A DNA stretch of 64,000 nucleotides from Escherichia coli (lineage in GTDB: Bacteria; Pseudomonadota; Gammaproteobacteria; Enterobacterales; Enterobacteriaceae). Shown here piece after piece: positions 27,261 through 63,233 of the stretch. A model generated the notes under the pieces. The model was not told the DNA's origin. It was given only the letters and a program-made list of their open reading frames with translations, and searched no databases. The stretch is taken from assembly GCF_050920415.1 (NCBI RefSeq), contig NZ_CP169309.1; one strand, 5' to 3'. The position numbers were made by a program, and so were the translations under genes. Every line of letters starts with the position of its first letter. Within the stretch, counting starts at the first letter, position 1.

Positions 27261-29086
27261 TGAAATTGCAAAAGCAATTACTGGAAGCTGTGGAGCACAA
27301 ACAGCTACGCCCGCTGGATGTGCAATTTGCCCTGACCGTGGCGGGAGATGAACATCCTGCCGTCACCCTCGCGGCAGCCCTGTTAAGCCACGACGCCGGG
27401 GAAGGGCATGTCTGTTTACCGCTCTCACGACTGGAAAATAACGAGGAGTCACATCCGCTGTTAGCAACCTTCGTCAGCGAAATCGGTGAGTTACAAAATT
27501 GGGAAGAATGCTTGCTGGCTTCACAAGCGGTCAGCCGGGGAGATGAACCAACGCCGATGATCCTCTGTGGTGATCGTCTTTATTTGAATCGCATGTGGTG
27601 TAACGAGCGCACAGTGGCACGCTTTTTCAACGAAGTGAATCATGCCATTGAGGTTGATGAAGCTCTACTGGCGCAAACCCTGGACAAACTTTTTCCAGTA
27701 AGCGATGAAATTAACTGGCAAAAAGTGGCGGCGGCAGTGGCGCTGACGCGGCGGATCTCGGTGATTTCCGGCGGCCCTGGCACCGGTAAAACGACCACCG
27801 TAGCGAAGTTGTTGGCAGCGTTAATTCAAATGGCAGACGGCGAACGCTGCCGTATCCGCCTGGCTGCGCCAACGGGGAAAGCTGCCGCGCGCTTAACCGA
27901 ATCGCTTGGCAAAGCTTTGCGCCAGTTACCGCTGACCGATGAACAAAAGAAACGCATACCGGAAGACGCCAGCACCTTGCACCGTCTCCTGGGCGCGCAG
28001 CCAGGTAGCCAGCGTTTACGCCATCATGCCGGTAACCCGCTGCATCTTGATGTGCTGGTGGTGGATGAAGCGTCAATGATCGATCTCCCCATGATGTCGC
28101 GCCTGATCGATGCGTTGCCCGATCATGCCAGAGTGATCTTCCTCGGTGATCGCGATCAACTGGCCTCGGTTGAGGCTGGAGCTGTGCTGGGCGATATCTG
28201 CGCTTATGCCAACGCAGGCTTTACCGCCGAGCGTGCCGGGCAATTAAGTCGTCTGACGGGAAGTCATGTTCCGTCAGGAACTGGCACAGAAGCGGCATCT
28301 TTGCGCAACAGTCTCTGCCTGCTGCAAAAAAGCTATCGTTTCGGCAGCGATTCTGGCATTGGTCAGTTAGCTGCGGCGATCAACCGTGGTGATAAAACGG
28401 CAGTGAAAACCGTTTTTCAGCAGGATTTTACTGATATCGAAAAACGGCTTTTACAGAGCGGCGAAGACTATATTGCGATGCTTGAGGAGGCTCTTGCGGG
28501 TTACGGGCGTTATCTGGATCTGCTGCAAGCGCGTGCCGAGCCGGATTTAATCATTCAGGCGTTCAATGAGTACCAGCTTTTGTGCGCCCTGCGGGAAGGG
28601 CCGTTTGGCGTGGCTGGACTGAATGAGCGAATTGAGCAGTTTATGCAACAGAAGCGCAAAATTCATCGTCATCCGCACTCTCGTTGGTACGAAGGCCGAC
28701 CAGTGATGATTGCCCGTAATGACAGCGCGCTTGGGTTGTTTAATGGCGATATCGGTATTGCGCTGGATCGCGGGCAGGGGACGCGCGTCTGGTTTGCGAT
28801 GCCGGATGGCAATATTAAGTCTGTGCAACCGAGCCGCCTGCCAGAACACGAAACCACGTGGGCGATGACGGTACATAAATCGCAGGGATCGGAGTTTGAC
28901 CATGCGGCGTTGATTTTACCGAACCAACGCACGCCAGTTGTAACGCGAGAGCTGGTTTACACTGCGGTGACCCGCGCGCGTCGCCGTCTGTCGTTGTATG
29001 CCGATGAGCGCATATTAAGTGCGGCAATCGCCACTCGTACTGAGCGGCGCAGTGGTCTGGCGGCGTTGTTTAGTTCGCGGGAATAA
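27260..29086 (+). CDS. recD: Exodeoxyribonuclease V alpha subunit
   Basis: 608 aa; Walker [11 protein letters not shown]; start overlaps recB stop. Confidence 0.96.
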
Positions 29087-40298: not shown

Positions 40299-40348
40299 AC
40301 AATCAGGTCGGATGCGACGTGAACGTCTTATCCGACCTGGTTTTGCGC

Positions 40349-49782: not shown

Positions 49783-51099
49783 TCAGTTAGTTGCCGTTTG
49801 AGAACGGAAACGGGCAAAGATAAAGATGACCGCGAAGCAGAGTGCGGGGATCAGTTCGGCTGTGGGGATGTTGCCCGCCGCGTCACTGACAAAACCCATG
49901 ACCGGAGTGACAATACCGCCGCCAATAATGGTCATAACGATGAAGGACGAGCCGTATTTGGTGTCCTGGCCGAGATTCTTTATGCCCAGCGAGAAGATTG
50001 TTGGGTACTGAATCGACATAAAGGCGCTGCATAAAGTCAGGGCTATTAAACCCACATGACCGCCAGCGAAGGCTGAGATCAGGCACAGTGCCATAGCGAT
50101 TAATGCGTAGGCTGCCAGGACTTTGTGTGGTGCGAAGCGACTGATGAGCCAGGTGCCGGTGAAACGACCAATAAAGAAGCACACCATGGTTCCGGTTAAA
50201 TAGTTAGCGGCAAAGCCTGCGGTCATACCTGGAATTTCTTCTACAGCGTAGCGAATTAAATAGCTCCAGCAGGCCGTTTGTGCGCCAACGTAGCAGAATT
50301 GCGCTAATACTGCCCAGCGCCAGTGGCGAATACGCGCCAGGCGAGAAAGCGATGCGGAGAACGATCCTTGTTTGGCGTCACTGTGATTATCACTCTGCAA
50401 TGCCGGGAATTTCGTCAGCATGATCAGCAGGGCGACCAGTAACACGATAGCCACGATGATCATATAAGGTGTCTGTACCGATAATACCAAGCTGTGTTTA
50501 TACGCACTCAATTGCTCTGGTGACATTTTATCGAGAACGTCTTGCGATTGATGTGGCACGTTAGACAAAATAAGACTTTGCCCAAAGACAACCGCAATAA
50601 TTGCGCCAAATGAGTTAAATGTTTGCGCAAGATTTAAGCGAAAGTGACCGCTGCTTTCTGGTCCTAATACCGTAACGAAAGGGTTTGCGGCAGTTTCCAG
50701 ACAACCTAATCCGGCTGCAATAATAAATAGGCCAATTAAAAATAAGGTGTAGTTCATTATTTCTGCGGCGGGCCAGAATAATGCAGCGCCGAAGGCATAT
50801 AAAAACAATCCGGTAATAATCCCTGCTTTATAACTGAGTTTTTTCATCAATATCCCGGCAGGGATTGGGATAATGAAATAACCAAAGTAAAAGGCCGATT
50901 GGATCAGACCTGCCTGAAAGTTTGTCAGCGTAAAAGCCTGCTGAAATTGAGGCAATAAAATGTCGTTAAGGTTATTGGCTACCGCCCAAAGAAAAAACAG
51001 TGAGCACAGCAGCGCGAATGGAATAATGTAACTTCTGCTTTGCCCTGCATCTTTATCTACCGCACGGTAACTCTGCGTTTGTATTGATGTGTTTCCCAT
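49783..51099 (-). CDS. fucP: L-fucose:H+ symporter (MFS)
   Basis: 438 aa; 12-TM profile; recognised as FucP. Confidence 0.95.
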   Translation of the reverse strand: MGNTSIQTQSYRAVDKDAGQSRSYIIPFALLCSLFFLWAVANNLNDILLPQFQQAFTLTNFQAGLIQSAFYFGYFIIPIPAGILMKKLSYKAGIITGLFLYAFGAALFWPAAEIMNYTLFLIGLFIIAAGLGCLETAANPFVTVLGPESSGHFRLNLAQTFNSFGAIIAVVFGQSLILSNVPHQSQDVLDKMSPEQLSAYKHSLVLSVQTPYMIIVAIVLLVALLIMLTKFPALQSDNHSDAKQGSFSASLSRLARIRHWRWAVLAQFCYVGAQTACWSYLIRYAVEEIPGMTAGFAANYLTGTMVCFFIGRFTGTWLISRFAPHKVLAAYALIAMALCLISAFAGGHVGLIALTLCSAFMSIQYPTIFSLGIKNLGQDTKYGSSFIVMTIIGGGIVTPVMGFVSDAAGNIPTAELIPALCFAVIFIFARFRSQTATN

Positions 51100-51645
51100 A
51101 GCATCCTCTTAGGTTCAGAAGCTTAAGCACGTAATCGGTTATGTTTTCAAAAGTGCAAAACCAGCGAGTTCGGGCTTCATATCAGTGAATATTTGCCTGT
51201 CTGAAATGAACTCATGGATTCATTTTCAAATAAAAAACGCTCTGTAATATGACGGCGGTCACACTTATTAGCTGGAAGGTGACTTTATGTGACTACCATC
51301 ACTTTAATAATCGAAATTTCATGCCCGTTTCAGAAAATAAATCATAAAAAACACAAACCCGATGACCGTATTAATTGTTTGTGCCGAAAACGGGCATTTC
51401 TGGCGAGGGGGAATGGAAAAATGACCGTTTTGATAAATATTTTTAAGAGCGGTCATTTTTAATAGGGTTATAAAAAGACAACTTGCAGTTATTTACTGTG
51501 ATTAGTTGAACCAGGTCACAAAATCTAAGCTTGTGAATTTCTTTCTGGTTAATCAGGAAGAAGATGGTGGGTAATTAAACGGCTAATTCAATAGTGTGAA
51601 AGGAACAACATTATTGCCCTGTTTTGAATCAGAGAGAGGTAGCTA
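51100..51645. promoter_or_regulatory. Divergent fucPIKUR / fucAO control region
   Basis: 546 bp AT-rich gap between divergent fucP and fucA; individual FucR/CRP sites not resolved by eye. Confidence 0.55.
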
Positions 51646-60809: not shown

Positions 60810-61177
60810 GTCGACAGGGAGTCAGACAACGAAGTGAACATCAGGATGATGACACTTCTGAAGGACACACCAGGAGGGTGTTTCAGGGAAAGGCTTCTGG
60901 ATGAAGCGAAGAGGATGACGCAGGACGCGTTAAAGGACACCTCCAGGATGGAGAATGAGAACCGGTCAGGATGATTCGGTGGGTCAGGAAGGCCAGGGAC
61001 ACTTCAGGATGAAGTATCACATCGGGGTGGTGTGAGCAGGAAGCAATAGTTCAGGATGAACGATTGGCCGCAAGGCCAGAGGAAAAGTTGTCAAGGATGA
61101 GCAGGGAGCAACAAAAGTAGCTGGAATGCTGCGAAACGAACCGGGAGCACTGTGAATACAGTGCTCCCTTTTTTTAT
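60810..61177 (+). ncRNA. csrB: CsrB sRNA (CsrA-sequestering)
   Basis: Begins GTCGACAGGGAGTCAGACAACGAAGTGAACATCAGGATGATGACAC; at least eight CAGGATG/AGGATGA-type motifs counted by eye; ends with hairpin GGGAGCACTGTGAATACAGTGCTCCC plus T7; between syd and yqcC. Confidence 0.9.
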
Positions 61178-61220
61178 TCCTGCTATCCTTCGCGGCAGTT
61201 TTTCTTATTGAGGTTGCTTT

Positions 61221-62349: not shown

Positions 62350-62799
62350 ATGGCGGAAATTGGTATTTTTGTGGGCACCATGTACGGAAATTCACTGTTA
62401 GTGGCGGAAGAAGCGGAAGCAATTCTGACCGCGCAGGGCCACAAAGCAACGGTATTTGAAGATCCTGAATTAAGTGACTGGCTGCCCTATCAGGATAAGT
62501 TCGTTCTGGTGGTTACGTCCACGACCGGGCAGGGCGACCTTCCTGATAGCATTGTGCCACTTTTTCAGGGAATCAAAGATAGCCTGGGCTTCCAGCCGAA
62601 TCTGCGTTATGGCGTGATTGCGCTCGGCGACAGTAGTTATGTGAATTTCTGCAATGGCGGCAAACAGTTCGATGCCTTGTTGCAGGAACAGAGTGCGCAG
62701 CGGATAGGGGAAATGCTGTTGATTGACGCCAGTGAGAACCCGGAACCGGAAACGGAATCAAATCCGTGGGTCGAACATTGGGGCACGCTGTTGTCCTGA
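62350..62799 (+). CDS. yqcA: Flavodoxin-like protein
   Basis: 149 aa; flavodoxin fold signature (VGTMYGNS... TTGQGDLP). Confidence 0.88.
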
Positions 62800-63233
62800 T
62801 ACGTTCAGCGAGCGGTAAATGCCGTTTTAGCGGTGCTGAATCGAATCTTTTCAGGCAAATGCCAGTAAAAACTGCTTCATAGCGCGGATTTTTACTGGCG
62901 TTTGCCTGGAGTCAAGCGATCCATTTCATACTCTTCTTTATTTCTTCGTTTTAACCCTTCCTTTCTTATTCTTGTTTTCATTTCCGTGAAGTGGATTCCA
63001 CCGTCCAGGGCTAATGCCAAAATCGGGCCTCATTGAACGCATTAATGTTGTGTTGTTGCACGGTGAGCCGCTATGGCGCGCTTTTTATACTGTTATTGCC
63101 AGATATAAACACGCGCCGTATTCGGCGAACGACCTATAAAAACGGCAAAAAATACCCTACGTCACCTCTGATTTCCTGGCGATGTCGCAGTCCAGAGTGA
63201 GCGTGGCTAACGCGAATTTTCAGGAGTGCAACA

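Follow-up and report, generated by a model that had tools for sequence, protein, structure and literature searches.

An inverted repeat between yqcA and gudP in Escherichia coli: a candidate 3'-end RNA hairpin and its overlap, in the left arm, with a box of the gudP control region

What does a long, near-perfect inverted repeat do between two genes that are read in the same direction? The question is raised by the end of the window, that is, the whole 64-kb stretch of E. coli DNA under analysis, which carries csrB, yqcC, truC, yqcA, and gudP, all on the + strand, and corresponds to K-12 near 2.92 Mb, read as the reverse complement. The flavodoxin gene yqcA (62350..62799, +), placed by the ORF list and by the RefSeq annotation of identical DNA, is the last of the yqcC-truC-yqcA run, and its stop codon (62799) is separated from the ATG of gudP (63234) by a gap of 434 bp that contains the repeat. 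RefSeq annotates nothing within this gap in K-12, and the covariance models of Rfam 15 returned only chance-level matches in E. coli and none in the gap of five other genera. Farther upstream, the small RNA CsrB, a known gene, is found at 60819-61178 (Rfam RF00018, 380.9 bits).

Geometry, folding, and copy number of the repeat

The arms of the repeat, CAGGCAAATGCCAGTAAAAA (62852-62871) and TTTTTACTGGCGTTTGCCTG (62889-62908), as read from the sequence and returned by a repeat finder, are complementary at 19 of 20 positions and are spaced 17 nt apart; the preliminary description, which had reported a near-perfect inverted repeat between yqcA and gudP, was exact in its arms, their complementarity, the loop, and the length of the gap. 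The repeat finder also gives longer arms of 35 nt each (62837-62871 and 62889-62923), whose complementarity is weaker (77%). Across the whole window, it is the longest and best of the hairpin-type inverted repeats. The others include one at 51417-51460 with 22-nt arms and no spacer (82%), one at 40301-40342 with 20-nt arms and a 2-nt spacer (85%), and one at 28403-28454 with 16-nt arms and a 20-nt spacer (88%).

When folded as RNA, the + strand reaches −46.3 kcal/mol (z −6.6) versus −38.3 kcal/mol (z −5.3) for the − strand, and the 57-nt core has an energy of −36.8 kcal/mol. The sole mismatch between the arms, T:G, is a G·U pair in the RNA of the + strand and a C·A mismatch in that of the − strand. 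The left arm (62852..62871, +) holds an A-run (62867-62871), and the right arm (62889..62908, +) begins with the complementary run TTTTT (62889-62893), which is thus paired with AAAAA inside the stem and does not lie 3' of it. Between them, the 17-nt loop (62872..62888, +) folds into a weak inner stem, CUGC (62872-75) with GCGG (62884-87), and leaves a bulged A at 62888. The full E. coli stem is followed by GAGUCAAG and has no U-rich tail. In terms of an intrinsic terminator, then, a stable GC-containing stem-loop is present on the same strand, 53 nt past the yqcA stop, while the U-rich tract, about 7-8 nt long, that should directly follow the stem is absent in E. coli, and a terminator scan of the + strand of the E. 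coli gap found no terminator-like site. The earlier statement that there is no T-run therefore holds for the sequence after the stem in Escherichia and overlooks the TTTTT within the right arm.

Of 5426 complete E. coli genomes, 5425 carry the 87-nt region around the hairpin as a single copy, with a median of one place per genome, and it is 100% identical in approximately 80% of these 5425 genomes, K-12 included; the hairpin region is conserved in five other Escherichia lineages as well. Two natural variants were read, one with a change in the loop and the other with a C-to-T change that yields a U·G pair. Within the 64-kb window, no second copy of an arm was found even when 3 mismatches were allowed (0.00 expected from shuffles). 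Like REP, BIME, and IRU (ERIC) elements, the repeat is a palindromic intergenic hairpin, and in Enterobacter and the Citrobacter freundii group REP-like elements take the equivalent place, directly after yqcA; those families, however, are dispersed in many copies. As the repeat is single-copy in each E. coli genome and has no second copy in the window, membership in the REP, IRU, or ERIC families is ruled out; a match to a REP/IRU family was one of the two findings that, according to the preliminary description, would have refuted it.

Orthologous hairpins and the form found in Escherichia

For comparison, 80 loci were retrieved through the YqcA protein, and the sample is hence unbiased for the hairpin. 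The order from yqcA to gudP is kept in most of these loci, and in genomes in which the two genes are separated, no extra copies of the module were found at those loci. Homologous hairpin regions were found in Escherichia species, the Citrobacter koseri/amalonaticus/sedlakii group, Salmonella, and Superficieibacter, as well as in the Raoultella group, Kosakonia, Phytobacter, and Silvania, so the repeat is conserved in relatives, contrary to the other refuting finding of the preliminary description, a lack of conservation in close relatives. No such region is present in Enterobacter, the C. freundii group, Leclercia, and others; there, yqcA is followed instead by T1, which is a different hairpin, or by a REP-like element. 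T1 is GC-rich (CCCTCCC...GGGAGGG), lies in the first 60 nt after yqcA in most genera (L007-L081), and usually has no U-run; in many genera, the hairpin corresponding to the repeat, T2, is located about 100 nt downstream of it. Some stable hairpin within 200 nt of the yqcA stop is present in all 81 of 81 loci, the median best energy over 45 nt being −19.3 kcal/mol versus −12.6 kcal/mol for shuffles.

An alignment of 27 orthologous sequences shows that the core pairs GCCnGUAAAA/UUUUACnGGC and an inner stem are retained. In this set, 70.7% of the cells of the core pairing are paired, versus 29-45% when the partners are slid, and the covariation score is 0.177, compared with at most 0.126 for slid partners; the pair 38-70, for instance, is C-G in 8, A-U in 7, and U-A in 3 orthologues. 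RNAalifold recovered the core hairpin de novo from a 17-sequence subset and gave no consensus for all 27 sequences, a set that is too heterogeneous. The inner segment is hypervariable, even within Escherichia, and yet remains self-complementary: its 19 nt fold better than their own shuffles in 12 of the 27 orthologues, and at least six different inner stems occur, namely CUGC/GCAG, CCUUUC/GAAAGG, CCCUUU/AAAGGG, CCGC/GCGG, CCCUC/GAGGG, and CCCUGC/GCAGGG. The pairing is also strand-specific. An A·C cell on one strand is a G·U pair on the opposite strand, and the counts of G·U and A·C cells are 14 and 2 in Escherichia and 31 and 11 in the 20-sequence core set. The suggestion in the preliminary description that the repeat may be a structured RNA element has thus gained support from a core hairpin that is kept across genera, with compensatory changes and an excess of G·U on one strand.

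What kind of hairpin this is can be read from its surroundings. A run of 4-7 T comes after the inner stem in approximately 20 of the 27 orthologues, and its counterpart in E. coli is the T-run of the right arm (62889-62893). The terminator scan flagged the Citrobacter copy as terminator-like on both strands. On its sequence, the orthologous hairpin T2 is built like a bidirectional-type intrinsic terminator, with which it shares the order of A-run, GC stem, loop, GC stem, and U-run and the location downstream of a stop codon. The E. coli form differs from such terminators in that its inner stem has only 4 bp and its U-run is paired within a longer stem. Accordingly, the earlier remark that the locus lacks a canonical terminator applies to Escherichia only, since in Citrobacter, Salmonella, Superficieibacter, and the Raoultella group 4-7 T come directly after the corresponding hairpin.

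Just 5' of the hairpin, a block at 62836..62847 (+) reads CTGAATCGAATC here and CTGAATCGnGTTAGC in other genera, with the G at 62843 nearly invariant in the alignments. The longer block (62836-62851) is conserved across genera and has neither a pairing partner nor a recognised motif; its GTTAGC half is replaced in E. coli. In three Citrobacter sequences (L010, L021, and L023), the block is complementary, over 9 + 6 bp, to the gudP leader up to the Shine-Dalgarno sequence (z −2.1 to −3.4). Such long-range pairing is not significant in E. coli or in genera other than Citrobacter and was set aside. No conserved sigma-70-like promoter was found upstream of T2.

Several features set Escherichia apart. 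The inner stem of the E. coli hairpin, 4 bp with an energy of −3.9 kcal/mol, is no better than that of shuffles (p = 0.11). Relative to the Citrobacter/Salmonella consensus, on the other hand, the Escherichia-specific substitutions in the arms amount to 4 gains of a pair, 2 upgrades from G·U to Watson-Crick, and 0 losses, and the outer pairs 26-82, 28-80, and 30-78 are found in Escherichia only. The energy of the stem ranges from −24 to −37 kcal/mol in Escherichia, from −16 to −27 kcal/mol in Citrobacter, and from −10 to −16 kcal/mol in Salmonella. In addition, Escherichia lacks T1, the hairpin that directly follows yqcA in most other genera; given that the gap contains no other terminator-like site on the + strand, T2 is the only 3' structure of yqcA in this genus. 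Most likely, the ancestral form was a conserved intrinsic terminator of the bidirectional type, made of an A-run, a GC stem-loop, and a U-run, and in Escherichia the inner stem decayed and the right flank became complementary to the left, giving a stem of approximately 24 bp in which the U-run is now enclosed. With the U-run buried in such a stem, efficient intrinsic termination is proposed to be no longer possible in Escherichia. The near-perfect 20-nt repeat is, then, an Escherichia-specific extension that arose either because a stronger 3' hairpin was selected once T1 had been lost or because a quasi-palindrome was "corrected" by template switching.

The left arm within the gudP control region

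The same bases also have to be considered as DNA. The left arm matches a box that is common to the promoter regions of gud and gar, as judged by a 22-nt position-weight matrix that was trained only on gud box B and gar box 2. The left arm ranks second among the sites of this matrix in 22 of 25 orthologous gud gaps, always on the + strand and with scores of 10-21 bits, whereas the 95th percentile of shuffled sequences is 8.8 bits. In the window, the match, referred to as box A, spans 62849-62870 (12.2 bits) and has the core GGCAAATGCC (62854-62863), of which GGCGTTTGCC (62897-62906) in the right arm is an inverted copy. The right arm itself scores 9.5 bits (62890-62911, − strand) and is box-like in Escherichia only. 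The whole 64-kb window holds 4 matches of at least 12 bits. Two of these lie outside the gud region, at 50970 (−) and 34042 (−), with 16.5 and 13.7 bits, and may be due to chance.

Downstream of the repeat, the control region has a rigid layout. Its 5' edge is formed by a CRP-like site (62915..62930), which reads AGCGA-N6-TCATA in E. coli and AGCGA-N6-TCACA in other genera and is set within the invariant anchor TCAAGCGA (62912-62919; invariant TCAAG.GA columns). The half-site TCGCT, the reverse complement of AGCGA, occurs in a CRP site with a measured affinity of 2.3 nM, and AGCGA-N6-TCACA is taken here as a probable CRP site. Box B (TCCAGGGCTAATGCCAAAATCG; 63004..63025, +), the promoter-proximal copy of the left-arm-like box, is conserved in 70 of the 70 gaps scanned, and it is followed by a putative gudP core promoter (63056..63091, +), identified from conserved blocks, that consists of the box TTGCACGGTG, a 20-nt spacer, and a −10-like TATACT (63086-63091); the orthologous region of Citrobacter gave a promoter-like match. 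Spacings within this region are nearly fixed: boxes A and B are 154-156 bp apart in 19 loci and one helical turn closer, at 146 bp, in Salmonella (2 loci); the anchor is 92-93 bp from box B in 33 of 36 loci and 82 bp in two; and box B is 82-83 bp from TATAC in 67 of 70 loci. Even the 61-62-nt spacer before TTTCATTTCCGTGAAG, the sequence of which cannot be aligned, is constant in length. Some RefSeq E. coli genomes annotate a 42-aa ORF on the purine-rich − strand at 62892-63020 as a "hypothetical protein" (WP_001296328.1); it is probably spurious, because it overlies the spacer that is unalignable between genera. Within the left arm, the GC...GC columns hardly vary, even in sequences whose right arm offers them no partner, and this is explained by the overlap of the left arm with box A.

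A comparison with gar adds to this picture. The garD upstream regions of six further genera (L086-L091) were aligned, the E. coli garP-garD gap being L082:5909-6282. The gar and gud regions have in common the TATACT hexamer, a TTGCACnnTG box 20 nt from TATACT, and a box similar to gud box B (gar box 2, TTTTGnGCATATGCmCATAA), and in both a palindromic GGGC-W4-GCC box is located about 82 bp upstream of the −10. On the strength of their sequences, these shared sites are candidate CdaR sites, and CdaR is the obvious candidate for the protein that binds the box; as of 2020, the binding sites of CdaR were reported as yet to be determined (PMC7652997). Regulators of the PucR family bind inverted-repeat operators, with lengths of 21 bp for GabR, 24 bp for AdeR, and 17 bp for PutR (PMC7652997), and the GGGC-W4-GCC box resembles these in being palindromic, about 20 bp long, flanked by A-rich sequence, and repeated at matching positions in gud and gar. 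In contrast to such operators, box A is approximately 240 bp upstream of the putative start site, and the 57-nt repeat far exceeds a single operator.

The repeat in its entirety was also considered as a CdaR operator, a candidate that was rejected: no string of at least 9 bases is common to the repeat and the E. coli garP-garD control region, and GCAAATGC, an 8-mer that the two do share, is not kept when the gar gaps of other genera are compared. The earlier suggestion of an operator for the gud operon is consequently not supported for the repeat as a whole, given its freely varying self-complementary centre and the lack of such a gar match, and has partial support for the left arm alone, with its box match and fixed spacing.

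Rho, transcript ends, and competing explanations

If the E. coli hairpin is no longer an intrinsic terminator, how does yqcA transcription end? Immediately past the hairpin lies a pyrimidine-rich, G-poor tract (62910..62987, +) that is a candidate rut region. Its C/G ratio, 3.0, is the highest of all 78-nt segments in the 64 kb (9% G, 77% pyrimidine), and C outnumbers G in the equivalent spacer of most genera. According to Adams et al. 2021 (Supplementary file 2), the gap contains a Rho termination region (Rho score 3.98, p = 9e-8); its peak, K-12 position 2922118 (−), is equivalent to 63216 (+) here. In 800-nt windows, the ratio of downstream to upstream reads was 23/114 in untreated cells versus 90/112 with bicyclomycin (Adams et al. 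2021). These data, although coarse in resolution, run against Rho-independent termination at the gap. The peak at about 63216 is 18 nt upstream of the gudP start codon, an arrangement that could also mean Rho-dependent attenuation in the gudP leader; likewise, the Rho signal could instead reflect attenuation of the gudP transcript or an indirect effect of bicyclomycin. A 3' end at the yqcA hairpin is absent from the curated Term-seq lists of Adams et al. 2021 for three conditions, which is weak evidence given the weak expression of yqcA, and the TERMITe tables have no entry for such an end.

A precedent for a hairpin of this kind has been described. Rho-dependent transcripts of E. coli end at stable stem-loops without U-tracts, with a rut region of C > G immediately downstream, and exonucleases trim them back to the stem; it has also been argued that terminators are able to switch type through changes in the U-tract (Dar & Sorek 2018, PMC6061677). 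The yqcA hairpin agrees with this class (PMC6061677) in its stable stem-loop devoid of a U-tail, the adjoining C > G tract, the sensitivity to bicyclomycin, and the switch from an intrinsic type; it differs in the stem of approximately 24 bp (−37 kcal/mol), the relic A-run/U-run in the middle of the stem, and the left arm that is at the same time a conserved DNA box. The reading that is favored, with about an even chance of being correct, is therefore that the repeat constitutes the 3'-end RNA hairpin of the yqcC-truC-yqcA transcript, a former intrinsic terminator that now relies on Rho and insulates the gudP promoter. In such a scheme, Rho would load on the C-rich, G-poor tract just past the hairpin and stop read-through from yqcA, 3'-to-5' exonucleases, presumably PNPase or RNase II, would trim the transcript to the hairpin and leave a stabilised mRNA end, and the hairpin would shield the gudP promoter from upstream transcription. 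At the level of DNA, the left arm would double as box A, a distal box in the control region of gudP to which the gud/gar activator probably binds. It should be noted that most other genera have T1 after yqcA, so that T2 is not needed there as the primary terminator, that the fixed spacings between box A and box B (154-156 or 146 bp) suggest a DNA-level constraint on the same bases, and that the palindrome of Escherichia may have been extended by mutation, through template switching, with no selection for the change.

How far could the arms be explained by DNA alone? They would then be inverted copies of the gudP box, acting as a distal operator or upstream activating sequence, probably for CdaR, and looping with box B, while the RNA hairpin would be incidental. 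Such an explanation is unlikely, although it accounts directly for the second-best matrix rank of the left arm in 22 of 25 gaps, the rarity of matches (only 4 of at least 12 bits in 64 kb), the A-to-B spacing (154-156 bp, 19 loci; 146 bp, Salmonella), and the near-invariant GC...GC columns that lack complementarity in the right arm; inverted repeats of 17-24 bp are, moreover, bound by PucR-family regulators (PMC7652997), and the Escherichia right arm reaches 9.5 bits. A pair of boxes, however, leaves unexplained the self-complementary, freely varying centre, the covariation at the low-information pair 38-70, the T-run after the stem, and the asymmetry of G·U over A·C. Besides, the right arm is box-like in Escherichia only, the site is about 190-250 bp upstream of the putative −10, no mapped binding of CdaR has been reported (PMC7652997), and GCAAATGC, which is common with E. 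coli gar box 1, is not kept in other genera. A purely operator-based model thus fails on the covarying centre, the T-run, the low-information covariation, and the G·U excess, and a purely RNA-based model fails on the conservation of the left arm and its phasing; together, these failures lead to a terminator-type hairpin whose left arm overlaps the distal gudP box. The fullest version of this combination, in which the left arm as DNA (both arms in Escherichia) serves as distal gud/gar activator boxes phased across a CRP-bent spacer and the RNA serves as the hairpin that ends yqcA, is offered tentatively and is more likely incorrect than correct.

The remaining explanations retain the RNA or dispense with function. 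That the E. coli hairpin is still a Rho-independent terminator, releasing the transcript at the internal U5 (62889-62893) or at the GUUUG after a GCCAG...CUGGC core stem, is consistent with the U-runs that follow the homologous hairpins in other genera, with the A-run/U-run pairing typical of bidirectional terminators, and with the lack of another terminator-like site after yqcA. It is nonetheless quite improbable in view of the 4-bp inner stem (−3.9 kcal/mol, p = 0.11 against shuffles), the full stem without a U-rich tail, the scan that detected no terminator, the approximately four-fold rise in read-through into gudP when Rho is inhibited (Adams et al. 2021), and the absence of a Term-seq 3' end from the same lists. 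Alternatively, the palindrome may be neutral, a decaying quasi-palindrome of a terminator that was "corrected" by template-switch errors of replication, with its near-perfection serving no function. Every change in the arms is toward complementarity, as template switching predicts, and the inner stem and the U-run context have decayed, whereas 100% identity of the 87-nt region in approximately 80% of 5425 E. coli genomes, its conservation in five other Escherichia lineages, and the retention of some stable hairpin after yqcA in every lineage make a functionless repeat highly doubtful.

Very unlikely indeed is a regulatory RNA, whether the hairpin were the terminator or body of a small RNA (from the yqcA 3' UTR or from between T1 and T2) or a 24-bp RNase III site by which, as with lambda sib, read-through transcripts would be destabilised. 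In the lambda sib/tI retroregulator, a terminator hairpin becomes part of a longer double-stranded RNA stem only in read-through transcripts; RNase III cleavage is conjectural for the yqcA hairpin, although the stem is long enough for the enzyme. The 5' flank CTGAATCGnGTTAGC, conserved without a pairing partner, and the location of T2 about 100 nt past T1 in many genera would fit such an RNA. Set against these are the lack of an Rfam match in E. coli or five other genera, the lack of a conserved sigma-70-like promoter upstream of T2, the absence of a 3' end from the Term-seq lists of Adams 2021, the silence of the searched RNA-biology literature on yqcA, and the restriction of significant complementarity between the 5' block and the gudP leader to three Citrobacter sequences.

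For E. coli, the favored reading of a Rho-reliant 3' hairpin supplies what the annotation lacks, a 3' end for the yqcC-truC-yqcA unit, which is mostly a routine gain: the element belongs to a known class of structure and involves no new mechanism. It also provides a clean, phylogenetically resolved case of the switch proposed in general form by Dar and Sorek, from an intrinsic terminator to a U-less, Rho-dependent protective hairpin, by way of a palindrome that was extended over the U-tract. Should the left arm indeed be used both as DNA and as RNA, the binding of the activator and the read-through from upstream could affect each other, for example through roadblock-assisted termination or a disturbed activation loop, and CdaR would gain its first proposed operator motif, GGGC-W4-GCC flanked by A-rich sequence. 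Of more use, perhaps, is a side result: the rigid architecture shared by gudP and garP-garD gives candidate CdaR operators, to which gud adds a CRP-like site and a distal box. Such candidates are relevant to the use of glucarate and galactarate by E. coli and Salmonella in the inflamed gut, as well as to CdaR-based biosensors.
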